DNA of 64,000 bases, from positions 5,873 through 69,872 of the IMG/VR virus record IMGVR_UViG_3300028800_000086; one strand, written 5' to 3'. Within the stretch, counting starts at the first letter, position 1. Every line of letters starts with the position of its first letter. A program made the position numbers and the translations under genes. The notes under the pieces were generated by a model that saw only the letters and a list, made by a program, of their open reading frames with translations, made no database searches and was not told where the DNA came from. Source of the DNA: a virus. Shown one piece after another: positions 22,901 through 63,363 of the stretch.

Positions 22901-23703
22901 ACCGCCGTCAATCCACCGACGTTGAGGATGTCGCGAACCTGATACGACTGCGTCGAGACGATTGGTAGCGTCTGCTTATAACTGCCATCGGCGTAGTAGG
23001 CGACCGCCGCACCGACCGCCGCGCCGGTGAAGTTGGCCAGCGCGCCCCACAGGTACGACGGGTTTACCGCGCTTTCGGTATCGTCATGGGCTACGTCGGG
23101 CGGCGCAGGCGCAAGACCCTGTAACAACAGGATCGAGCCATTCCACTTTAGTTCCGCAATGGCTCCCGTGATCAGTTCGTTGCCGATAAGGGGCGAGCCG
23201 TCGCGCCGCCTTATCGGTACGTCAACACCCCATCCGTTGAACGTCGAAGGTCCGGAGTTGTCTTCCGGTATCTTAAAAGAGACGGTCAGTCCCGGTTCTG
23301 GCGCAACGATCGTCGGGTTGTAGACCGCCGTGTATTCGTTCGCGTTTGTCGCCGTCGCCTCGGCATAACTGTAGGCCTGGTTCTGCGCCTCTACCGTTTG
23401 CGGGAAGCGCGCCATCGTGCCAGCGGTGACCAGCTGTTCGAAGCCCGATCCTTCAGGCCAGTTCTGCGCGATCGTTCCTTCCTGGGCGCGAACGATAGTC
23501 AGCGTGTCGCCGTCGCGCGCCGTCACCAGGACGATTTCATTAAGCGGACCGAGCGCCAACGTGCCGTAAAATTCCGAACTTACTCCCGGTTGCGGAAACA
23601 ACGCGCCTTGGCCCAGGCTCAAAATGAGCGTGGTACCGTCCGTCTCCAGAAGATCGGCGGTTTCCGCGACGGCGTTGTTGGCGAATTGAAGAAGCTTCGT
23701 CAT
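19909..23703 (-). CDS. Tail fibre/tailspike with beta-helix region
   Basis: Start MTKLLQFANNA (ATGA overlap); EIVLVTARDGDTLTIVRAQEGT baseplate-anchor motif; LLPPGGKY beta-helix entry. Confidence 0.75.
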   Translation of the reverse strand: MTKLLQFANNAVAETADLLETDGTTLILSLGQGALFPQPGVSSEFYGTLALGPLNEIVLVTARDGDTLTIVRAQEGTIAQNWPEGSGFEQLVTAGTMARFPQTVEAQNQAYSYAEATATNANEYTAVYNPTIVAPEPGLTVSFKIPEDNSGPSTFNGWGVDVPIRRRDGSPLIGNELITGAIAELKWNGSILLLQGLAPAPPDVAHDDTESAVNPSYLWGALANFTGAAVGAAVAYYADGSYKQTLPIVSTQSYQVRDILNVGGLTAVRFRQKAKIAPTNLAVRCDLGINGTTYGAHRADGDWSNVSAGPDPFTWVLNDCPWVDDGSIFVIGHAYQIGTIFDAAAEINRLLSYGFTAGGTTVMLLPPGGKYQKTAILRVPGCVEFDGGGSSNSWIFLADKVDQTGASPDGSNGVAHMISNGAAGASPNYPNVVSVTIRGMCLHGNRSRSGYQHGFHNIDLGGDTDTNVPLSLVKLIDVYNFGSPGYGASLGGYNSKNMIYWSGGGHWGTDGDCEDVKNRLSSNTTIYNTDMTFKYWALGGQGTNLSWNNRNGARSTGTDYYCPLVNAVFAVKSTGSSYNSTTGVVTLKTTATNTFATGDVIVVSALTGTGSDLASADGTFTVASKPGIDTITYAIATGLTINSITGGTTTGTNGTNPIRTYSGKTYASININVLTPVSPTYQKPLLNAGAGERISFIGTPGFNGCTFNGSFNILGVTDEDGQLKFDLNGQTANASGNGGGSAVSVFNAGISVGDRIIDMRGLNFRATNCAAEGWANKRNGYYQRVGSGLSNAQVGGEYCVISGCSFVDTSPAWIGTLADSTAKCRGGATLLSIGGRVVNNTFTSLNRVGGKAINIGAEATGFYVAGNTVTGFDVCYLNQGRYGTLSGNFAINPIIKGFVDNGAQQQDAVSLNVDGLEPQQLGGIQVLVSASEGLPAGFHIGANVRLSHVINTNNGIVIRTPNIGGPYSITGIVDQFSFTINADGSPGATNLDPFGGDSMDARTDGQNQSTYGNTYISPKVLFNNNITPDSRFQYAFDLGNSDGDAVGLSSFASISGLVVDPVVPVTQVVRDMGLNTIWDATGISPAPREVIADIVQAPHIINGRGIGPLITPGKVAYAVPFPMTKIIFGNLDWCSTLIISGTGLMHDSLSNQNWGIEFSADNGVTFATSNYNRIGGTSGTSKLLFSGSVAGNVSIGFEAVVLNFNQPWRTPVRLKGGTKNDPNNIMYPGYYDGNTVFNAFCILPSAGNAIAGLISVQGLPLGDI

Positions 23704-38669: not shown

Positions 38670-40175
38670 ATGCCGAAGAAGAAAAAAGATGACGTTGAGG
38701 AGTGGGAGAAAAAGGCCAATGAAAACCTAGACAACATACAGCCTAGCTCGCGTCTCGAAGACTTCGTTTGGGACGCGAGCGGCGGCGTCTACTGGCGGAT
38801 GGACGGACGTTGCATCAAGACCGAGAAAGGCGTGGACTCACTCATCCATCCCGATCTCTGGCCGATGAATGCGCGCACCGAGAAAGTAATCAAGCCATCT
38901 CGCTTCCTCGCCAACAAGGCGAACGGTCGCGTGGTCGACGCGATCACCTATCGCCCGGGGTTCGATCCCGTCATCCGCGGTTACAAGGATATCTCCGGCA
39001 TCATCAGCGCCGATCCGTCCGGCATCCTTCTCAACTTCTATCGGCCGCCCGTCTTCGACGATAAGCTTTGCAAGATCAATTCCGATTTCTTCACCAACCA
39101 CGTCAAGAAAATCTATCCCGGCGAAGGCGATTACGATCACCTGTTCGATTACTGCGCCCACATGATCCAGAAACCGGAGGAGAAGCCGAACCACGGCATA
39201 ATGCTTTCCGGTGAGCAAGGCATCGGCAAGGATTTTATCCTTGAGACGCTTCGTCTTTGCGTCGGCTTCGATAATCAGCGGACCGTATGGCCGCACGAAC
39301 TTCTCGCCGCCGCGAAAGGCGGCTTCAACGCGCATTACCTTCCCTGTATCATGCTCGTCGTTAACGAGACGAAGGAGGAAGGCGAAGTGCAGCCTGTCTC
39401 CTTCTACAACGCGCTCAAGCCGTTCCTCGCCGGTCCGCCGAATACTCTCCCGGTCAACGGTAAGAACCGCGACGTGATCCAAGTTCCGAACCTCGTTAGG
39501 GGTTTCGTTCTTACCAACAAGCCGATGTCGCAATACATCGACCCGAATGACCGGCGCATCTATCCGATGCACTCGACGAAGCTCGCGGAAAATCTCGGCG
39601 GCGGCGAATACTTTAAGAAGCTCTACGGCCACCTGGAGAAAGATCACGGCTATATCGCCGTCTACCACTGGCTGAAAGGCCGCGACATTTCAAACTTCAA
39701 CGCCAAGCAGCCGCCGCCGATGAACGAGGCGAAATCGATGATGGTCGGAAACTTCCGCGTTGATCAGGGCGGCGCGATCCTCCAGGCGCTCGATACGATC
39801 GGCGAACGCGTCATTAATCAGGACGGCAGCGAGACGATCAAGCATCCTGACTTCTTCTTCGTTAATGAGCTTTCATTTCACGAATTCGACGGCAAGGAGG
39901 AGCTTGAACGGCTCCGCAAGTCGAACCGCATCCGCTACGTGATGGAGGAGCTTGATTATTTCGCCTACAATTTCGAGCCTCGTCTAATCCGCAAGGGGAA
40001 GTATCCGTTGAAGGCGTCGAAGGCGTTTATCCGAAAGGAGCTATTCGACGATATCCCGGCGATCGTCGCCGCTCTAAAGGAGCGCGCCCTAGTCTACGTC
40101 CGCGGCGATCTCCCGTACCAGAAGGCCGAAGCTCCGGCATCGAACGTAGTGCCGTTAAAAGGTGGCGGTTTTTGA
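38670..40175 (+). CDS. Primase-associated P-loop helicase (DUF5906-like)
   Basis: Walker A GEQGIGKD, Walker B LVVNE, TN and DRR motifs. Confidence 0.85.
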   Translation: MPKKKKDDVEEWEKKANENLDNIQPSSRLEDFVWDASGGVYWRMDGRCIKTEKGVDSLIHPDLWPMNARTEKVIKPSRFLANKANGRVVDAITYRPGFDPVIRGYKDISGIISADPSGILLNFYRPPVFDDKLCKINSDFFTNHVKKIYPGEGDYDHLFDYCAHMIQKPEEKPNHGIMLSGEQGIGKDFILETLRLCVGFDNQRTVWPHELLAAAKGGFNAHYLPCIMLVVNETKEEGEVQPVSFYNALKPFLAGPPNTLPVNGKNRDVIQVPNLVRGFVLTNKPMSQYIDPNDRRIYPMHSTKLAENLGGGEYFKKLYGHLEKDHGYIAVYHWLKGRDISNFNAKQPPPMNEAKSMMVGNFRVDQGGAILQALDTIGERVINQDGSETIKHPDFFFVNELSFHEFDGKEELERLRKSNRIRYVMEELDYFAYNFEPRLIRKGKYPLKASKAFIRKELFDDIPAIVAALKERALVYVRGDLPYQKAEAPASNVVPLKGGGF

Positions 40176-40357
40176 TGACCCGGGAAGAAGCGAAGAAGGA
40201 ATTGGCGGCGCTTCGTAAGCTGCCGCACCAAAGCAATATCGGCTCATCCTTCGCCCGGATCGATCTGCGCCGTGCGGCGATGCCGCCGCGCGAGCCGAAC
40301 GACGCTGATCTGAACGACGAAGGCGGCAGGCGTAAGGTGCCCATCCGGTACGACTGA
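40172..40357 (+). CDS. Hypothetical protein
   Basis: Coupled to helicase stop. Confidence 0.4.
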   Translation: MMTREEAKKELAALRKLPHQSNIGSSFARIDLRRAAMPPREPNDADLNDEGGRRKVPIRYD

Positions 40358-47223: not shown

Positions 47224-48150
47224 ATGAACAATCAACCTGTCCAGATCATCGGTGCCGGCCTAGCCGGCCTTCTCGCGGCCCACGCGTGGCCTAACATCCC
47301 GATCATCGAAGAAGCCGCCCGCGACGATCTTGTCGGCCACAACGCCCTGCTACGCTTCCGCGGCGACGCCGTATCGCGGTTAACCGGGATACCATTTCGC
47401 GAAGTCACTGTGCGTAAGGGCATCTGGTTCCGGAACGCCTATCAGCCGCCGTCGATCGACATGGCTAACCGATACAGCCGCAAGGTCCTGGGCCGCGTCG
47501 TCTCCGATCGTAGCATCTGGAACGTCCACGCTGCCCAGCGCTTCATCGCGCCGGAAGACTTCTATGAACGGCTCATCGAATACGCTGGCTCACGTATCAG
47601 CTGGGGCGAGAAGTACGACTTCAAGGGCGCTCCTTCCGTCCCGACGATTAGCACCGCTCCCCTTCCGGTCGTTATCAAGGCGATCATCGGTCACGAACCG
47701 AAAGAAGAATTTGCGCGTGCGCCGATTATCGTTCAGCGTTACCGAATTCCGCAAGCCGACGTTTTCCAAACGATCTATTTCCCCGACGAAGGTCTGCCGA
47801 TTTATCGCGCTTCGATCACCGGCGATCTTCTAATCGTCGAAAGCGTTTTCTCCGCGCAGATCGACGTGACGGATTTACGCGAGCTTGGATCGGCGTTCGG
47901 CATGCCCGTTCGAAAAGCCGAGCTTATCGATACAGTGAGCCAGAAGTACGGCAAGATTATTCCCCTGCCCGATAACGTCCGCAAAGACCTGCTCTTTAAG
48001 CTGACGACGCAGAAGGGCATCTATAGCCTGGGGCGGTTCGCGCAATGGAGAAACATTCTTTTGGATGACGTAGTCGACGACATAGCGGTCATCAAGCGTC
48101 TCCTTCAATCCGGATCATCTTACGATGCCGCCCGGGTTCGGGCCTCTTGA
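47224..48150 (+). CDS. FAD-dependent oxidoreductase
   Basis: IIGAGLAGLLAA Rossmann motif; C-terminal SLGRFAQW. Confidence 0.75.
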   Translation: MNNQPVQIIGAGLAGLLAAHAWPNIPIIEEAARDDLVGHNALLRFRGDAVSRLTGIPFREVTVRKGIWFRNAYQPPSIDMANRYSRKVLGRVVSDRSIWNVHAAQRFIAPEDFYERLIEYAGSRISWGEKYDFKGAPSVPTISTAPLPVVIKAIIGHEPKEEFARAPIIVQRYRIPQADVFQTIYFPDEGLPIYRASITGDLLIVESVFSAQIDVTDLRELGSAFGMPVRKAELIDTVSQKYGKIIPLPDNVRKDLLFKLTTQKGIYSLGRFAQWRNILLDDVVDDIAVIKRLLQSGSSYDAARVRAS

Positions 48151-48175
48151 CTCGGGCATCTTCCCGGGAGATAAA
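48147..48175 (+). promoter_or_regulatory. Putative promoter of Y RNA/Ro60 cassette
   Basis: TTGACT-N17-GATAAA, ending 5 nt before the first RNA stem. Confidence 0.6.
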
Positions 48176-48180
48176 GCGAA

Positions 48181-48258
48181 CGGTTTCGACGGTAGCGTAG
48201 GGCGCGGTTACTTCTTTGGATGAACAATACCGCTTCCGTTCTTTCTCCGTCGAAGCCG
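48181..48258 (+). ncRNA. Y RNA-like unit 1 (short, no tRNA domain)
   Basis: 48181-48192 pairs with 48247-48258; GGTAGCGTAG motif; inner GCGGT/ACCGC stem. Confidence 0.7.
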
Positions 48259-48266
48259 CAGAATTT

Positions 48267-48330
48267 GTCGGTGGCGTAGTCGTCCGTTGCATCTCTTTTG
48301 TAGCAGTGCGGACAGCGATAGTTCCCCGGC
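48267..48330 (+). ncRNA. Y RNA-like unit 2 (short)
   Basis: GTCGG/CCGGC ends; GGTGGCGTAG motif; inner GTCCG/CGGAC stem. Confidence 0.6.
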
Positions 48331-48338
48331 TTCGTGAC

Positions 48339-48478
48339 ATGATGGGTGGCGTAGGGTTCGGTTACTTCAGGGAGCGAAAGGCCGCGGGTTCAAATCCCGT
48401 CGTCCCGGGCAATCCGGGACGTAGCGCAGTCCGGTAGCGCGTTCGCAGCAAGTCCGGTCCCGATTTTTCCCCCATCAT
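48339..48478 (+). ncRNA. yrlA: YrlA-type Y RNA with circularly permuted tRNA-like domain
   Basis: ATGATGGG/CCCATCAT closing stem; T arm GCGGG-TTCAAAT-CCCGT, loop-closed acceptor stem, D arm GCGC-AGTCCGGTA-GCGC; next to Ro60. Confidence 0.88.
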
Positions 48479-48529
48479 TCACAAGCCGGATCAAGCGCAT
48501 CAGTCAATTCTGACTGATGAAGAAAGGAA

Positions 48530-49873
48530 ATGATCATGGCTCGTGTTAATCGAAAGAACTCAATCACTGCCGAGACGGCGGAAGGCGGCCCGGCGTTCGC
48601 TCATATGAAGCCGCTCGCCGCGCTGCGGCGTTCGGTCATGTCGTGCTTCCTGTGGGAAGACGAATTCTATGAGGACGGCATATCGATCGCGGAACGCATA
48701 GACTCGCTCGCGGAGAAGGTTGCGCCGGCCGATCTAGCCGCGCTCGCGATCCAGGCCCGCAACCAGTTCAACTTGCGGCACGTTCCCCTGTTATTGCTAG
48801 TTGTCCTAGCAAGAACGGGAAGCGGCACGCCGATCCTCAGCAATACGATGCCGCACGTCCTCAAGCGTGTCGACGATATGACGGAACTTCTCGCCTTGTA
48901 TTGGAAGGCGAACCCGCGCACCGCCAAGCAGGCGGCGGCGAAGTCCGGGCGCGGCCTTTCGGCCCAGATGAAGAAGGGGTTGGCCGCGAGCTTCGCCAAC
49001 TTCAATGAATATCACTTCGCGAAGTACGATCGCGAAGACGCGGTCAAGCTTCGTGATGTTCTTTTCCTCGCGCATCCCGATCCGGGCGGCGCGCGTCTCG
49101 ACTTGTTCAAGAAGATCGCGACGCGTACGCTGGAAACTCCGGATACCTGGGAAGTCGGACTGTCCGCGGGCGGCGACAAGAAGGCGACGTTTGAAAGGTT
49201 GCTACGCGAAGGTAAGCTAGGATACCTCGCGCTGCTGCGGAACCTCCGCAACATGGCTACGGCCGGCTGCGACGACGGTCTAGTCCGGGCCGCGATCGTT
49301 GCCCGCAAAGGCGGCGCGGAGCGCGTCTTGCCGTTCCGCTACGTCGCGGCGGCCCGCGCGGCTCCGCAATACGAACGCGAGCTAGATACGGCGCTCATGA
49401 TGGCGATACGGGATATGCCGGGAATGTCCGGGACGACCGTGGGCCTGATCGACGTTTCCGGCTCGATGGGCGATCCGCTTTCCGCGAAGTCGGATATGCG
49501 CCGTGTCGACGCGGCGGCGGCGCTCGGATCGATGATCCCGGGCGACGTTCGTCTGTTCACGTTCAGCGACAAACTCGTCGAAGTTCCGCCGCGTAAGGGA
49601 ATGGCGGGCGTCGATGCGATTATAAATTCGCAGCCGCATCGGTCCACCTATCTCGGTCGCGCGCTCGCGGAGATCGACGCTAAGGTCAATTACGATCGGA
49701 TCATCGTAGTGACCGACGAACAGACGGCCGACAAGGTCAAGGAGCCGAAGGGCCGCGGCTACATGATCAACGTCGCCTCGAACAAGAACGGCGTCGGTTA
49801 CGGCGGACGCTGGACGCAAATCGACGGCTTCTCCGAAGCGATCTTCAACTTTATCCGGGAGATCGAACGCTAA
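48530..49873 (+). CDS. rsr: Ro60/Rsr TROVE + vWA domain RNA-binding protein
   Basis: EDEFYE, LRDVLFLAHP, TWE..LS, YLALLRNLRN, RVLPFRY TROVE motifs; MIDAS DVSGSM and VVTDEQ. Confidence 0.93.
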   Translation: MIMARVNRKNSITAETAEGGPAFAHMKPLAALRRSVMSCFLWEDEFYEDGISIAERIDSLAEKVAPADLAALAIQARNQFNLRHVPLLLLVVLARTGSGTPILSNTMPHVLKRVDDMTELLALYWKANPRTAKQAAAKSGRGLSAQMKKGLAASFANFNEYHFAKYDREDAVKLRDVLFLAHPDPGGARLDLFKKIATRTLETPDTWEVGLSAGGDKKATFERLLREGKLGYLALLRNLRNMATAGCDDGLVRAAIVARKGGAERVLPFRYVAAARAAPQYERELDTALMMAIRDMPGMSGTTVGLIDVSGSMGDPLSAKSDMRRVDAAAALGSMIPGDVRLFTFSDKLVEVPPRKGMAGVDAIINSQPHRSTYLGRALAEIDAKVNYDRIIVVTDEQTADKVKEPKGRGYMINVASNKNGVGYGGRWTQIDGFSEAIFNFIREIER

Positions 49874-49895
49874 CGCTGCCCGCAAAATTTCTACG

Positions 49896-49926
49896 AACGG
49901 CCTGCCAACCTCAACGGCAGGCCGTT
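49896..49926 (+). terminator. Hairpin after rsr (possible terminator/processing site)
   Basis: 11-bp perfect stem AACGGCCTGCC/GGCAGGCCGTT; weak U tract. Confidence 0.55.
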
Positions 49927-49954
49927 TGCGTTAAGCAGCGAAACGCGTCAAACT
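49926..49954 (+). promoter_or_regulatory. Putative promoter of ThyX-like operon
   Basis: TTGCGT-N17-CAAACT. Confidence 0.4.
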
Positions 49955-49978: not shown

Positions 49979-50731
49979 ATGCTCGTCAATCTTATCTCTT
50001 ACACTGGCCACGGCCATCCCGATCCGCTCTATGCCGCGCGGCTTCTCGCTTACACGAAGTCGACCCGTCTGGAGCAAGGCGCGGCGACCCGCGAAAAATT
50101 CGCTTCAATGGGCGAAGACGAACTGGCGAAAGAACTAGACTACATATCGAAGACAATACGCAGTTCGTGGGAGATGGTCGACTATACTTTCGAGATCATC
50201 GGCGTCACCCGCGCCTTCACCCATCAGCTAGTCCGGACGCGGACCGGCTCCTACGCCCAACAAGCCCAACGCGTCGTCGACATGTCGAGCTTTTCGACGA
50301 CGATGCCTGATACGATCGCGGGCAATGATCCCGCCGCGGAAGCGTGGAACGACTTGATGGGCCGCATCGCGACGACGTATGCCCATTTAAGTGAATTGGG
50401 AATTCCCGCCCAGGATCGGCGCGGCATCCTTCCGACGAACGTTCACACGAACATTATCGCGAAGTTCAACCTTCGCACCCTCGCGGACGTTCTGGCGAAG
50501 CGAAAGAACCTCCGCGCCCAAGGCGAATACGCCGACGTGGCGAGGGGCATGGAAGCCGCGGCGCTCGCGGTCCATCCCTGGATTAAGCCGTTCATCGATC
50601 CCGATCGGCTAGCTACTCCCGCGCTCGACGCGATCCTAGCCGAAGCGCTAGGCGCTCGCGGACCGCTCGACCAGCCGCGGGTGAATGCGGCACTCAAGGA
50701 GCTAGACGCGCTCAAAGGAGTTTGGGGCTAA
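49979..50731 (+). CDS. ThyX-fold flavoprotein with non-canonical active site
   Basis: YTFEI.GVTRAFTHQLVR, QD.RGILP, NLRTL, AQGE motifs; signature reads RTRTGSYAQQAQR. Confidence 0.85.
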   Translation: MLVNLISYTGHGHPDPLYAARLLAYTKSTRLEQGAATREKFASMGEDELAKELDYISKTIRSSWEMVDYTFEIIGVTRAFTHQLVRTRTGSYAQQAQRVVDMSSFSTTMPDTIAGNDPAAEAWNDLMGRIATTYAHLSELGIPAQDRRGILPTNVHTNIIAKFNLRTLADVLAKRKNLRAQGEYADVARGMEAAALAVHPWIKPFIDPDRLATPALDAILAEALGARGPLDQPRVNAALKELDALKGVWG

Positions 50732-51111
50732 TGAAACCGATCCTTTGCCTGGACTTCGACGGCGTGATCCACAGCTACACCAGCGGATGGATGGGCGCGC
50801 ACTTGATACCGGACCCGCCATTGCCGGGCGCGATCGCCTTTCTGCGCCGCGCGTCGCTCGCCTTTCGCATCGTTATTTTCTCCAGCCGCTCTAATCAACC
50901 GGGCGGCTTAGAGGCGATGCGCGCTTGGCTAAACCTTTTCGCCTTCAAGGAAGACGAAGACGCTAACGAATGGTTGCCGCAGGTCGAATTCGCGACCGAG
51001 AAGCCGCCCGCGTTCGTCACGATCGACGATCGCGCGTTGACATTTAACGGCGATTGGAACGCCTATCCGGTCGACTATCTCCTCGCGTTCAAGCCGTGGA
51101 ACAAGAAATGA
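50731..51111 (+). CDS. HAD-superfamily phosphatase-like protein
   Basis: LDFDGVIHSY, FSSR, KPP, IDDRA. Confidence 0.8.
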   Translation: MKPILCLDFDGVIHSYTSGWMGAHLIPDPPLPGAIAFLRRASLAFRIVIFSSRSNQPGGLEAMRAWLNLFAFKEDEDANEWLPQVEFATEKPPAFVTIDDRALTFNGDWNAYPVDYLLAFKPWNKK

Positions 51112-58841: not shown

Positions 58842-59171
58842 ATGCCCAACGTCTACGTTCCTCAAGTCCCTAGCCGGATGAAATCAGGCATCTGGGTGCC
58901 GCAAGTCGACATTAGCGCCGCGCGAAAGTTCGGTGACGTGATCGAGCTTCTACCGCCAGAGGCGAGCCGGCTTCATGTCGCGCCGTTGATCAGCGTGATC
59001 CGCGAGAAGATGAAGAACTACACGAGCGACGATTACATCGTTGCTCTAGGCGATCCGTCGATCATCGCGATCGTCGCCTGTTTCGCGTATGCGAATGCCG
59101 GCTCGACGCTTCGCATCCTGAAATGGGATCGCCAGACCGGCGACTATATCCCTGTGGAGGCGCGGCTATGA
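58842..59171 (+). CDS. Conserved hypothetical protein
   Basis: A.KFG, DYIVALGDP, LKWDR motifs. Confidence 0.65.
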   Translation: MPNVYVPQVPSRMKSGIWVPQVDISAARKFGDVIELLPPEASRLHVAPLISVIREKMKNYTSDDYIVALGDPSIIAIVACFAYANAGSTLRILKWDRQTGDYIPVEARL

Positions 59172-59674
59172 GCGCGCAGATCGCGAAGATGGCGCGTCTT
59201 CTCGTGGCCGCGCTCGCGGACGTAAAGGATTGCGAAGCCGCGTTGGCGAAAGCGGAGGAGAAGAAGAAGCGACTGGAGCGCCAATCGCTTCCGGACCTAA
59301 TGAAAGAGTTCGACATGACTTCGACTAAGCTTAGAGATGGCACTAAGGTCGACATCTATGAAGACCTAGAGTGCGCGATCACCGAGGCGAACCAGGAAGC
59401 GGCGCTGAAATGGCTCAAGTCTAACGATTGTGGCGGCATTATCAAGACCGTCATCAGCATCGAATTCGGTCGTGACGAATTGGAAGCCGCCGAAGCGTTA
59501 GCGGCGCAGATAAGGAGGTTGACAAATCAGCCGATCAACGTCAGCGAGAAAGTTCATTGGCAGACGTTGAAGTCGACGATCCGTGAGTTGCGTGAGAAGG
59601 GCGTAAACGTTCCGTTGAATCTTTTTTCGATCTTTCCCTTTTCCAGGGCGAAGATCACACCACCGAAGAAGTGA
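59168..59674 (+). CDS. Replication-module protein (coiled coil + VHWQTLK motif)
   Basis: LPDLM, A..WL....GGIIK; upstream of SSB-like gene. Confidence 0.6.
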   Translation: MSAQIAKMARLLVAALADVKDCEAALAKAEEKKKRLERQSLPDLMKEFDMTSTKLRDGTKVDIYEDLECAITEANQEAALKWLKSNDCGGIIKTVISIEFGRDELEAAEALAAQIRRLTNQPINVSEKVHWQTLKSTIRELREKGVNVPLNLFSIFPFSRAKITPPKK

Positions 59675-59681
59675 AAGGAGA

Positions 59682-60545
59682 ATGACTATGGCTACGAAGA
59701 AAACGACCGGAAAGGCACTCGCGCCGTCCGGAGGAAAGTCGGTCACAACGACGAAAGGCTTTCGCGCCGACGCGGGGCGAGGCTTGGAAGGGGCGACGCA
59801 GGAAGCGTTCGCCGTCCCGTTCCTGATCGTCCTGCAGAAAGGATCGCCGCAGGTCGACGAAGCGTCACCCGAAATGATCAAGGGCGCGAAGGCCGGCATG
59901 TTCTTCGAAAGCGTCAGCAAGAAATTCCACGACGGCAAGAAGGGCATCATTTTCATTCCCTGCGCCTATCGCTGGGTCTTTCTTCGCTGGGGACCGCGCG
60001 GCACCGACAACGCCGGCTTCAAGGGCGAACTGAAACCGGCCGATGTGGAGGAGATGCGCGCCAAGGGCGAGATCAAGGAAGGCGACCGCGGCCGGCTCTA
60101 CGTGCCGCTCGAAAACGGCACGATCAACGAGAAGAAGTGTGATCGCGTCTCCGACACGCGCAATCACTACGGCCTGCTGGTCGACCCGGAAGCCGAGGAA
60201 TACATTCGCATTCTCCTGTCAGTGTCCTCGACGCAGATCAAAAAGAGCCGGAACATGAACACTGCGCTCGACAACATCCGCGCCCAGGACGAAGAAGGCC
60301 GGTACAAGCCGCCCACCTTCTCCCAGAAGGTCAAGTTGACGACGGTCGCGGAAGCCAACGACCTGGGTTCCTGGTTCGGCATCGACTACGCGCTGGCGGG
60401 CGGTCTGGACCCTGACAACGAATTCGAAGCCGGTCTGTACGCAGCCGGCCGCGCATTCAACCAGACGGTAAGCAAGGGCCAGGTCGTCGCGAACTACGAT
60501 CAGGCCGGCGAAGGCGGCGCCACCGAAGATCGGAAGGGGTTCTAG
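59682..60545 (+). CDS. Putative ssDNA-binding protein
   Basis: PFLIVLQKGSPQV, STQIKKSR, N..GSWF; acidic tail ending in F; high codon bias. Confidence 0.55.
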   Translation: MTMATKKTTGKALAPSGGKSVTTTKGFRADAGRGLEGATQEAFAVPFLIVLQKGSPQVDEASPEMIKGAKAGMFFESVSKKFHDGKKGIIFIPCAYRWVFLRWGPRGTDNAGFKGELKPADVEEMRAKGEIKEGDRGRLYVPLENGTINEKKCDRVSDTRNHYGLLVDPEAEEYIRILLSVSSTQIKKSRNMNTALDNIRAQDEEGRYKPPTFSQKVKLTTVAEANDLGSWFGIDYALAGGLDPDNEFEAGLYAAGRAFNQTVSKGQVVANYDQAGEGGATEDRKGF

Positions 60546-62660: not shown

Positions 62661-63043
62661 CCAAAGACATCGAAGCCGAACTTGAGGCGCTGCTGAAGAA
62701 GGCAACGCCGGGGCCGGTTGTAGTTCATCGTCGCGACGGCGAGGATGGCAGCATCAACTACGAAGTGTGGACGGAGAGTGCCGAGAATTACGAGCGGCAT
62801 TTCACGATATACGAGGCATACGACTCCAAACGCGGCAAGCATGATGCCGAATTGTACGCCGCCGCCCGGAACCACCTCCCCTCCCTCCTCGCAGACCTGA
62901 AACGGATGCGGGAGGCGCTGGAGCAATGCTCGGCTGAGTGGATGTCGCCGCCATGCACGGTCGCAGAAGGGGCTGCCTATCTATATGAAGAATTTGCTCG
63001 ACGCGCAGAGGTCGCGCGCGCAGCACTGGGGAGCACAGGATGA
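62657..63043 (+). CDS. Ead/Ea22-like protein
   Basis: L..KATPGP...DAELYAAARNHLPSLL. Confidence 0.6.
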   Translation: MTKDIEAELEALLKKATPGPVVVHRRDGEDGSINYEVWTESAENYERHFTIYEAYDSKRGKHDAELYAAARNHLPSLLADLKRMREALEQCSAEWMSPPCTVAEGAAYLYEEFARRAEVARAALGSTG

Positions 63044-63363
63044 CACAGGATAGCCTTCTGCCGTGCCCGTTTTGCTCGAGCACTGATGTGAAGCCGCGCA
63101 ACGATGATGTGGCCTATTTGCCGCCAGCAACACGCTACGTTCTTTGCCGGGGATGCGGTGCGTCCGGCGCGAATGTAGAGACGGAAGCCGAAGCCATCGC
63201 CGCCTGGAACCGCCGTGCCCCGGATGCCGCACTGGAAGCGCTGGAGAAGATCGACAAGTTCATTGAGGCGTTGAAGCCGAGCAAGCCGGCCAAGGAAATG
63301 TTGGCAATTCAAGCCGAGGTCCGCGCCGCCCTCTTCCTCTACCGCCAGCGGAGCAAGACATGA
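63040..63363 (+). CDS. Lar-family restriction alleviation-like protein
   Basis: LLPCPFC...C..CGA...EAIAAWNRR. Confidence 0.75.
   Translation: MTQDSLLPCPFCSSTDVKPRNDDVAYLPPATRYVLCRGCGASGANVETEAEAIAAWNRRAPDAALEALEKIDKFIEALKPSKPAKEMLAIQAEVRAALFLYRQRSKT

Follow-up and report, generated by a model that had tools for sequence, protein, structure and literature searches.

In a soil phage, the plus-strand stretch 48147-49928 holds a promoter-like site, then three stem-loop units, a TROVE+vWA gene (rsr) and a 13-bp hairpin. This order raises the question of what the stem-loops are, and whether they and the protein belong to one system. Phage Rsr proteins with upstream Y RNAs are already known in the published accounts (PMC4201824, PMC12135203). 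Table S2 of Chen et al. 2014 (PMC4201824) lists phage Rsr proteins that have between one and three YrlAs upstream, and the Ro60 of Thermus phage phiLo, whose structure dates from 2025, is described as binding two upstream Yrls and forming ternary complexes with host PNPase in vitro (PMC12135203). According to Chen et al., the species studied have at least two Y RNAs each, one tRNA-like and one hairpin, with a GNCGAA motif; a single precursor yields the Y RNAs, and a YrlA with a 7-bp acceptor stem is cleaved by RNase P (PMC4201824).

The first-pass annotation of the window (the whole 64-kb stretch of DNA analysed) had seen in the locus a phage Ro60/Rsr gene and three units like Y RNAs, and had taken the third unit for a permuted mimic of tRNA-Pro. 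This identity was upheld by a covariance model, by TROVE/vWA matches and by matches to tRNA-Pro genes. The locus is very probably a phage-borne Ro60/Rsr-Y RNA system, with the three Y RNAs and, after them, their partner protein encoded in one transcription unit. It adds a new and well-supported case to a kind of system known from both bacteria and phages. The coordinates are collected in Table 1.

Table 1. Features of the rsr cassette, in window coordinates
Feature	Position	Strand	Details
Promoter-like site	48147-48175	+	TTGACT 48147-48152, 17 nt, GATAAA 48170-48175
Y RNA unit 1, short type	48181-48258	+	R1 match 48185-48254, 59.3 bits, E 7e-14
Y RNA unit 2, short type, weakest	48264-48333	+	R1 match, 40.3 bits, E 1e-8
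Y RNA unit 3, YrlA type	48326-48492, core 48339-48478	+	R1 match 48339-48478, 48.9 bits, E 5e-11
tRNA-like module of unit 3	48374-48446	+	permuted tRNA-Pro without anticodon loop
Hairpin between unit 3 and the rsr ribosome-binding site	48498-48519	+	9 bp, 4-nt loop; from folding
rsr (Ro60 orthologue)	48536-49873	+	445 aa from ATG, AGGA 7 nt upstream
Probable terminator hairpin, 3' of rsr	49894-49928	+	GC-rich, 13 bp, 9-nt loop, then weak U tract; from folding

The protein is a Ro60 orthologue

The rsr product matched Pfam TROVE (2e-15, 57.4 bits against a cut-off of 23) and, over residues 10-445, phrog_850 (5e-49); an alternative start at 48530 would give 447 aa. Its nearest solved relative by sequence was the Ro60 of phage phiLo (PDB 9KOP/9L5Y; E 6e-21, residues 15-405), with which its MIDAS motif DVSGS (residues 308-312, starting at 49451) aligned; D308, S310 and S312 were invariant in 19 sequences. 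When an AF2 model (pLDDT 81.4) was used with Foldseek, all 13 matches at E ≤ 0.001 were Ro60 proteins, with a TMq of 0.59-0.70 to the phiLo, human, Xenopus and Deinococcus proteins, and the next matches were vWA structures. As modelled, Rsr has the Ro60 ring plus a vWA/MIDAS fold.

The stem-loops belong to a conserved, covarying RNA family

The covariance model, R1, rests on 20 units taken from other viral contigs and contains no window sequence. In the window and in the whole phage it gave exactly three matches below E 1e-7, and the next best in the whole 69.9-kb phage scored 14.8 bits (E 0.09). Since a model made without the window sequence picks out exactly the three units, they stand far beyond chance. 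Three bacterial genomes gave no match at E ≤ 0.01, with 150 candidates scored per genome.

In the alignment, 86.6% of the cells were paired as against 57.8% in shuffles, basal-stem pairing being partly selected by the way the units were picked, and the covariation score was 0.771 as against 0.207, a value that none of 500 shuffles reached. Helix 2, which had not been used in picking, was 80.9% paired, with double changes in six of its seven pairs. For 16 units of the YrlA type, RNAalifold recovered the basal stem, helix 2, the T arm and the D arm, with compensatory changes in 23 of 25 pairs. A long stem formed by the paired 5' and 3' ends and enclosing a bulged helix is a feature of Y RNAs, and it is found here.

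R1 had 68 matches at related viral loci, where every locus (21/21) held one to eight units and 19 held two or more. The units form an RNA family that is conserved and covaries; its members share the strand of the genes of this viral rsr clade (68/68) and lie upstream of them (67/68), the one exception being downstream of rsr at locus L015. YrlA models and covariation had been named in the first-pass annotation as one way to check the units: the stems do covary across viral rsr loci, whereas the Rfam YrlA match stays below its gathering score. A coding reading of the ORF at 48216-48437 was rejected; it has no Pfam family, and stem covariation and a variable number of units do not fit a protein.

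Two short units and one YrlA-type unit share a one-base variant of the Rsr-site motif

Together the three units span 48181-48492 (+), and 44 nt separate the end of the array from the start of rsr. As the first-pass annotation had noticed, they share a 5' strand motif (GGTAGCGTAG at 48191, GGTGGCGTAG at 48270 and 48345) and similar 3' strands (CGTTCTTTCTCC, CGATAGTTCCCC and CGATTTTTCCCCC). Elsewhere on the plus strand of the window, the loose motif GG[TC][AG]G[CT]G[TC]A occurs only at 23099 and 60594. All three units read G(G/A)GCGUAG, as compared with the GNCGAAN0-1G of Chen et al. 2014, U replacing the first A. Related units have GGCGAAG and GGCGUAG interchangeably at one position, so that the window motif is a one-base variant of GNCGAAN0-1G and not an exact copy.

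Unit 1 consists, in order, of a 12-bp basal stem, a bulged U, AG/CU pairs, a GCGUAG loop, helix 2, GGUUACUUC and a small apical stem-loop; alone it folds at -33.6 kcal/mol (z -3.88). Unit 2 has a basal stem of just 5 bp (48267-48271/48326-48330), a pyrimidine-rich apical loop, GUUGCAUCUC at the place of GGUUACUUC and a folding z-score of only -1.19. CCGGC, the 3' strand of unit 2, doubles as part of an extended stem of unit 3: the dual use of 48326-48330 that had been proposed is borne out by the minimum-energy fold of the whole leader, in which the basal stem of unit 3 runs over 48326-48346/48471-48492 (19 bp, two bulged C). Because it is weak and its 3' strand competes with this extended stem, unit 2 may be decaying. 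Units 1 and 2 resemble the YrlB class only as hairpins with small pyrimidine-rich loops; a Rfam scan of 48100-48560 at E ≤ 10 listed YrlA, tRNA, nuoG and mir-92, with no sequence match to Salmonella YrlB.

The leader could also act in cis on rsr

The sequence TTGACT-N17-GATAAA, which the first-pass annotation had called promoter-like, is present, although it failed the rule of a consensus scan because its -10 element lacks the final T. Judged by these hexamers, it would act as a promoter, with a predicted start about 6-8 nt 3' of GATAAA, at the first base of the unit 1 stem. A TTGAC hexamer lies 30-50 nt 5' of the first unit at 8 of 20 related loci. At the other end, the hairpin that had been described after the TROVE+vWA gene was also found (-25.9 kcal/mol, z -3.60) and is probably the terminator of the cassette, although the terminator scan did not call it; nor did that scan show a clear terminator between the units and rsr. 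The intervening hairpin (-20.2 kcal/mol, z -3.85) is a candidate processing site or a candidate element of translational control, and in the fold an outer pairing, 48485-48493/48531-48540, would mask the rsr start codon.

We considered the possibility that the three structures are mainly a cis-acting leader, controlling rsr by attenuation or start-codon masking, rather than separate trans-acting RNAs. Their place in the 5' leader without a clear terminator ahead of rsr is consistent with this, as are the hairpin directly ahead of the ribosome-binding site and the two alternative partners of 48485-48493, namely the extended stem of unit 3 and the rsr start region. Yet the stems are free-standing and closed, their number varies from one to eight per locus, one unit lies downstream of rsr, and the related RNAs of M. 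smegmatis and phiLo are, in the published accounts, discrete Rsr ligands. We regard control in cis as an improbable main role. It is compatible with trans-acting Y RNAs, the reading that we prefer, and the two are not mutually exclusive.

The cassette is probably self-contained

Neither RtcB, whose absence from the window had been pointed out earlier, nor RtcA was found anywhere in the 69.9-kb phage. ARAGORN found no tRNA gene in the window, and the Rfam tRNA model had no match in the whole phage; at related loci, ARAGORN miscalls some units as tRNAs. No PNPase or other recognisable RNA-decay partner is encoded in the window. ThyX and replication genes adjoin the cassette. Among relatives, a Pfam scan of 25 of the 44 ORFs downstream of rsr at 20 loci revealed no recurrent neighbour family, the sole matches being one Metallophos, one weak DnaG_N and one GIY-YIG. 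The variation of rsr neighbours between relatives fits the earlier description of a self-contained cassette. The matching sequencing runs were 17 rhizosphere DNA runs, with no RNA run among them. Contigs from four of them were identical, with zero variants in the Y RNA region, and thus offer no usable population-level covariation.

Unit 3 carries a permuted copy of tRNA-Pro arms

As had been proposed, the arms of unit 3 are in permuted order: GCGAA (48374-48378), T arm (48384-48400), closed acceptor stem (48401-48421), D arm (48424-48440) and TTCGC (48442-48446), the last pairing with GCGAA and closing the module. The acceptor stem has the full 7 bp of a tRNA plus one closing pair, and a 5-nt loop connects its two strands directly; CCA and spacer are absent. 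Only unit 3 has such a module in YrlA order, with T arm, acceptor-like hairpin, D arm and a closing stem to the Rsr site. The 5' acceptor strand and D arm (48415-48440) matched at least 120 genome loci, and agree with tRNA-Pro genes at 26 of 26 bases. A test of the first 40 loci found a tRNA-Pro gene at 39, with its 5' end at the match or 1 nt before it. The T arm and 3' acceptor strand agreed at 23 of 24 bases with tRNA-Pro genes among the matches listed. By its sequence, the module of unit 3 is of the YrlA type and reproduces three parts of tRNA-Pro: the T arm, the acceptor stem and the D arm. Among the matches listed, the exact 5' half is spread over many phyla, but only 7 of 301 sampled genomes of one class have it. 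The best 3' matches among those listed came mostly from Gemmatimonadota and Actinomycetota; given how conserved tRNAs are, the copy cannot name a host.

The Rfam YrlA model (RF02553) matched 48376-48444 over model positions 23-85 (31.1 bits, E 6.4e-5). The gathering score of 69 was not reached because the stem sequences differ from those of Salmonella YrlA; scores at related loci were 32-46 bits. No complete cloverleaf with an anticodon arm was found, the Rfam tRNA model giving 16.4 bits against a cut-off of 29, and no Rfam family reached its gathering threshold anywhere in the window.

The order of T arm, 3' acceptor, spacer, 5' acceptor and D arm is also what a junction of two tandem tRNA-Pro genes, the 3' half of one and the 5' half of the next, would yield. 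The tRNA-like part might accordingly be a dead remnant of such a pair, as its very high identity to real tRNA-Pro halves would allow, and Chen et al. 2014 warn of this false positive (PMC4201824). Here, however, a 5-nt loop joins the halves, with neither CCA nor spacer between them, the flanking sequences pair as the GCGAA/TTCGC stem and as a conserved Y stem with Rsr-site motifs, the phage has no tRNA gene, and the same T-arm/acceptor/D-arm architecture recurs with other sequences at 14 of 20 related loci. We give next to no credence to a dead remnant.

Related rsr/Y arrays still sit in phage tRNA clusters, the proposed source of a tandem-tRNA junction. This was the case for rsr and its Y array at 5 of the 16 related loci scanned.

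The first-pass annotation had further suggested that these RNAs, and the tRNA-Pro mimic in particular, may serve as decoys or adaptors against tRNA-cleaving defences such as PrrC, RloC and PARIS. The almost exact copying of a real tRNA-Pro by a phage with neither tRNA genes of its own nor RtcB would suit such a role, and so would the related arrays within phage tRNA gene clusters, which are often linked to tRNA-directed conflict. The fit to anticodon nucleases is poor, however, since the anticodon stem-loop, the part that these enzymes cut, is missing from the module, and a loop closes the module's acceptor end. To our knowledge, PrrC, RloC and PARIS target tRNAs other than tRNA-Pro. Moreover, most related YrlA-type modules have generic D arms and short artificial-looking acceptor hairpins, and nothing ties the cassette to any defence or counter-defence gene. 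A decoy or adaptor function is in our view unlikely. We also hold as a tentative idea, with the odds against it, that the cargo is no generic tRNA shape but a near-exact copy of a single species, tRNA-Pro(GGG), perhaps from a tandem-tRNA junction. It may be retained because it directs the Rsr particle to one specific target, or directs RNase P, the CCA-adding enzyme or some other host factor that binds tRNA-Pro to it.

Proposed mechanism and implications

From the sequence we infer how the RNAs are processed, how they bind Rsr and what the cassette does. Transcription would begin at the TTGACT/GATAAA site, near 48182, and host RNases would cut the leader into separate Y RNAs, as in M. smegmatis. 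RNase P may also cleave unit 3, between 48414 and 48415, because unit 3 has a 7-bp tRNA-Pro acceptor stem like that of M. smegmatis YrlA. The conserved bulged helix of each Y RNA (stem, U, GG or AG, CGUAG ... UUCC or UUCU, stem), a presumed variant of the GNCGAAN0-1G Rsr site, would be the part that docks on Rsr, while the apical modules, which differ, might connect Rsr with different host factors. Host PNPase would be the likeliest partner, to go by D. radiodurans, S. Typhimurium and Thermus phage phiLo. The Rsr particle could then feed structured RNA to the exonuclease during infection and, with ThyX and replication genes adjoining, might help to recycle host RNA into nucleotides.

The locus offers a clean and compact example, in a 70-kb phage that lacks both tRNAs and RtcB, of what is the rule in one viral Ro60 clade, an upstream row of Y RNAs (21/21 loci). 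Standard tools miss such units, Rfam at gathering thresholds and ARAGORN both being empty here; the clade model and the motifs GGCGUAG, GGUUACUUC and CGCUUGUUCC could serve in the annotation of phage Y RNAs. A sharp handle on the purpose of the tRNA-like domain of Y RNAs is offered by the exact copy of tRNA-Pro. Were the copy indeed kept for its specificity, the arrays of bigger phages would be panels of different tRNA mimics.

Comparison with known systems

The proposed mechanism is likened to the Rsr-Yrn1-PNPase particle (RYPER) of Deinococcus radiodurans, in which the Y RNA holds Rsr with its stem and tethers PNPase by its apical part. According to PMC4201824, the tRNA-like part of Yrn1 is arranged otherwise, and the link to PNPase is made here by analogy alone. 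The rsr-yrlBA-rtcBA locus of Salmonella Typhimurium likewise combines Rsr with a tRNA-like Y RNA (T arm, acceptor-like stem, D arm) and a simpler hairpin Y RNA (YrlB), and its 5' motif is related to GNCGAAN0-1G, as is ours; it is a sigma-54 stress operon, whereas the present cassette is set in a phage and has neither RtcB nor RtcA. In M. smegmatis (YrlA/YrlB) and in Bxz1-like mycobacteriophages, Y RNAs also lie upstream of rsr, as listed by Chen et al. 2014. The M. smegmatis YrlA has a 7-bp acceptor stem, is cleaved by RNase P and has CCA added (PMC4201824); unit 3 shares the 7-bp stem, its cleavage being only predicted. The mycobacteriophage Ro belongs to a different clade (552 aa as against 445 aa here).

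Caulobacter phage CcrColossus has a 57% identical Rsr and the same unit architecture and motifs. It is a 280-kb jumbo phage with eight R1 units: the three YrlAs given by Chen et al. (PMC4201824), at 495, 667 and 996 of locus L002, and five beyond that list. The present phage, of 70 kb, has three units, one of them tRNA-like.

Thermus phage phiLo differs in having two RNAs, Yrl1 and Yrl2, which were found through CGAA, as compared with three units with GGCGUAG here. The available part of the phiLo account mentions no tRNA-like module in these RNAs (PMC12135203), whereas one unit here is a tRNA-Pro mimic, and RNA binding has been demonstrated for phiLo, whereas our units are predicted ligands. 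Although the two proteins are only about 26-27% identical, phiLo Ro60 has the nearest fold (TM 0.70) and an aligned MIDAS motif, and in both phages the gene of a short Ro60 is immediately preceded, on its own strand, by several Y RNA-like genes (PMC12135203).

Conservation and folding of the Y RNA units

The three Y RNA-like units upstream of rsr, the Ro60 orthologue gene, are members of a structured RNA family that is conserved and linked to one clade of viral Ro60. When folded alone, units 1-3 follow the same plan. Its outer part consists of a basal stem, a bulged U and two base pairs (GG with CC; in unit 1, AG with CU), and its inner part of an internal loop (5′ CGUAG, 3′ U-rich run), a second helix and a variable apex.

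The relatives sampled were 21 viral loci encoding Rsr proteins with 39-60% identity to that of the window over the best matching segment. The shared structure was written from 20 short units picked in these relatives, the window units being excluded to avoid circularity. In the resulting alignment, 86.6% of the cells were paired, versus 57.8% in shuffles, and the covariation score was 0.771 versus 0.207 (as high in none of 500 shuffles), pairing in the basal stem being partly selected by the unit-picking rule. Helix 2, which is free of such selection, reached 80.9% pairing, and 6 of its 7 pairs showed double changes. Sliding the registers lowered pairing to 40-52%. At columns 10/108, 15 units have G-C and 5 have A-U, and unit 1 carries the same AG/CU variant of the two pairs as is seen in units of the relatives.

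A covariance model (R1) built from these 20 units matched only units 1-3, whether run on the 64-kb window or on the whole phage, before a next best hit of 14.8 bits (E 0.09; R1 E-values are rough because calibration was shortened). This next hit, at 40175-40263 on the minus strand, lies far from rsr and on the opposite strand, and is probably a chance match. No match was obtained at E ≤ 0.01 in three bacterial genomes (150 candidates scored per genome).

Positions of R1 matches and of selected phage genes
Feature	Position	Strand	Remarks
R1 match, unit 1	48185-48254	+	59.3 bits, E 7e-14 (rough)
R1 match, unit 2	48264-48333	+	40.3 bits
R1 match, unit 3	48339-48478	+	48.9 bits
ThyX	49979-50731	+	replication/nucleotide block
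Primase, ThyX, SDR, DnaQ-like exonuclease, DNA polymerase, helicase		+	replication/nucleotide block
Three consecutive Pam3 gp32/gp33/gp34-like proteins and Lar restriction-alleviation protein	58842-60542 and 63040-63360	+	plus-strand block
Sheath, baseplate, portal, terminase		-	

Unit 3 as a mimic of tRNA-Pro

The first-pass annotation was correct in describing unit 3 as a permuted tRNA-Pro mimic. The Rfam YrlA model aligned with it over 48376-48444 (T arm, then acceptor-like hairpin, then D arm), scoring 31.1 bits (E 6.4e-5), below the gathering score of 69 and with the stem part of the model uncovered. The stem consensus in Rfam YrlA differs from that of this viral clade.

The 5′ acceptor strand and D arm (26 bases, the D-loop triplet being left free) were present in at least 120 bacterial genome loci. 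ARAGORN, applied to the first 40, called a tRNA-Pro in 39 of them, with a 5′ end coinciding with the match or lying 1 nt upstream and with GGG (31), CGG (6) or TGG (2) as anticodon; the fortieth locus was cut by a contig end. When the T arm and 3′ acceptor strand were compared with the 121 matched tRNAs listed, the best agreed at 23 of 25 positions, the two differences being a T-stem G-C pair changed to G-U and the discriminator position. Some of the matched tRNAs also have the D-loop triplet of unit 3. The match of both halves to tRNA-Pro genes identifies the module, as judged from sequence, as a rearranged tRNA-Pro, whose ends are joined by a 5-nt loop and whose anticodon loop gives way to the Y RNA body, attached via the GCGAA/TTCGC stem. 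RNAalifold recovered the basal stem, helix 2, the T arm and the D arm from 16 YrlA-type units (that of the window and 15 from relatives), with compensatory changes in 23 of the 25 consensus pairs.

We considered the possibility, also raised by the annotation, that the Y RNAs are decoys against host tRNA-cleaving defences. This found no support here, and it fits anticodon nucleases poorly because the unit 3 module has no anticodon loop.

The Rsr protein

The open reading frame 48530/48536-49873 matched Pfam TROVE (2e-15) and phrog_850 'RNA-binding protein' (residues 10-445, 5e-49). The ATG at 48536 is the likely start, because AGGA lies 7 nt upstream and the alignments of relatives also begin at residue 3 of the longer form. 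The only solved relatives found by sequence at E ≤ 0.01 were the Ro60 entries of Thermus phage phiLo, 9KOP and 9L5Y (6e-21, residues 15-405), in which the MIDAS motif DVSGS of Rsr is aligned. An AlphaFold2 model of Rsr (19 sequences; pLDDT 81.4, pTM 0.75) was submitted to Foldseek. All 13 matches at E ≤ 0.001 were Ro60 proteins, followed by vWA domains; TMq was 0.70 for phiLo Ro60 and 0.59-0.66 for the human, Xenopus and Deinococcus proteins. Of 50,697 phage records, 95 encode a homologue; these include Caulobacter and Brevundimonas jumbo phages, 43-kb Xanthomonas phages, and crAss001-like, Rhizobium, Vibrio, Streptomyces and Gordonia phages.

Y RNA arrays in related viral loci

Over 1.5 kb on each side of rsr, the 21 related loci, of which L010 and L021 are duplicates, yielded 68 R1 units, all on the rsr strand, 67 upstream of the gene and one downstream. 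Every locus had at least one unit, 19 had two or more and 16 three or more; within the 1.5 kb examined, Caulobacter phage CcrColossus (L002) has eight upstream of rsr (260-1457). Motif-based typing of 68 units (3 from the window and 65 from relatives, duplicate L021 left out) classed 31 as short and 19 as YrlA-type; 9 had a T arm alone and 2 showed tRNA arm order, and the remaining 7 calls were 'D arm only', several of these being spurious. At least one YrlA-type unit was present in 14 of 20 related loci, and sub-threshold Rfam YrlA matches in 14 of the 16 loci scanned. In five of these 16 (L004, L008, L012, L014 and L015), rsr and its array are embedded in a phage tRNA cluster, at least four tRNA genes lying within 1.5 kb. 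The first Y unit of L004 and of L015 directly follows a tRNA gene.

Two matches to the Rfam tRNA model were not permuted, with the D arm first, then the anticodon arm and the T arm. One, L016:1229-1289 (positions 6-65, 48 bits), lacks the acceptor ends and lies inside an R1 match (1178-1319), so that the Y stem stands where a tRNA would have its acceptor stem; the other, L006:1358-1417 (positions 7-64, 47 bits), lies outside the R1 matches of its locus. The ARAGORN 'tRNAs' at L005:1295-1374, L009:1200-1271, L012:1312-1381 and L014:1273-1342 each combine the 5′ strand of a Y RNA stem with the T arm of the module, so that some tRNA genes annotated in phages at rsr loci may be false. The two CcrColossus units closest to rsr (1155 and 1330) combine T arms with unusually long D arms, which presumably resemble those of class II tRNAs.

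Genome context and expression signals

The 69,872-base IMG/VR record, most of which is covered by the window, is rated complete by CheckV and encodes a tailed phage. Neither tRNA genes nor RtcB were found in the whole phage, and the downstream neighbours of rsr are not conserved between related loci. The Y array and rsr thus behave as a self-contained cassette, as the first-pass annotation had proposed; the sequence features that it listed were all present where it had placed them. Rfam at gathering thresholds listed no family anywhere in the window. No sequence variants were found in the Y RNA region among contigs from 4 of 17 rhizosphere DNA runs. The second gene downstream of rsr (50722-51108, plus strand) gave a sub-threshold match to PF18143, the HAD domain of 'Swiss Army Knife' RNA repair proteins (23.1 bits, cut-off 27.5, E 1e-4).

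The promoter-like site before unit 1 has a good -35 (TTGACT) and a -10 (GATAAA) without the final T, which is why the promoter consensus scan did not list it; the predicted transcription start is the first base of the unit 1 stem. In 8 of 20 relatives the first unit is preceded by a TTGAC hexamer at a distance of 30-50 nt; two others have a tRNA gene immediately before the array. A 13-bp hairpin after rsr (-25.9 kcal/mol, z -3.6) has a weak U tract and was not called by the terminator scan; a 9-bp hairpin lies between unit 3 and rsr. Folding bore out the suggested dual use of 48326-48330, which form the 3′ strand of unit 2 and also the first five bases of the extended stem of unit 3; in the full-leader fold, unit 3 wins them. 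On the 3′ side of that stem, 48485-48493 can pair with the extended stem of unit 3 or with the rsr start-codon region (48531-48540), the latter pairing being one that would mask the start codon. These competing pairings possibly link Y RNA folding or processing to rsr translation.

Proposed mechanism and comparison with known systems

We propose that the array would be transcribed as a single precursor and cut by host RNases into separate RNAs, each of which may dock on Rsr via its bulged helix; the 5′ strand of this helix, G(G/A)GCGUAG, differs by one base from the Rsr site GNCGAAN0-1G. Through their apical modules, the RNAs would then contact different host factors. By analogy, the best precedent for such a role is PNPase tethering, which Chen et al. 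2014 (PMC4201824) report for D. radiodurans and S. Typhimurium; complexes of phiLo Ro60, its two Yrls and host PNPase in vitro are reported in PMC12135203.

Chen et al. 2014 (PMC4201824) report 254 bacteria and 22 phages with YrlA-like RNAs close to Ro60, and the species that they studied have at least two Y RNAs each, one tRNA-like and one hairpin, a composition also found in the window. The three CcrColossus YrlAs of Table S2 in that paper are the R1 units at 495, 667 and 996, to which R1 adds five. A phage Ro60 with two upstream Y-like RNAs was described for phiLo in 2025 (PMC12135203), and TROVE proteins are mentioned for some phages in a survey of jumbo phages. The literature searched, outside which lie some reviews that may cover these points, yielded no description of arrays as the rule in this viral clade, of the clade-specific motifs GGUUACUUC and CGCUUGUUCC, or of a Y RNA module copying one specific tRNA nearly base for base. 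Because the work of Chen et al. and that on phiLo already describe phage Ro60 with Y RNAs, a phage Ro60 with upstream Y RNAs is a known kind of system, to which the present locus adds an example.
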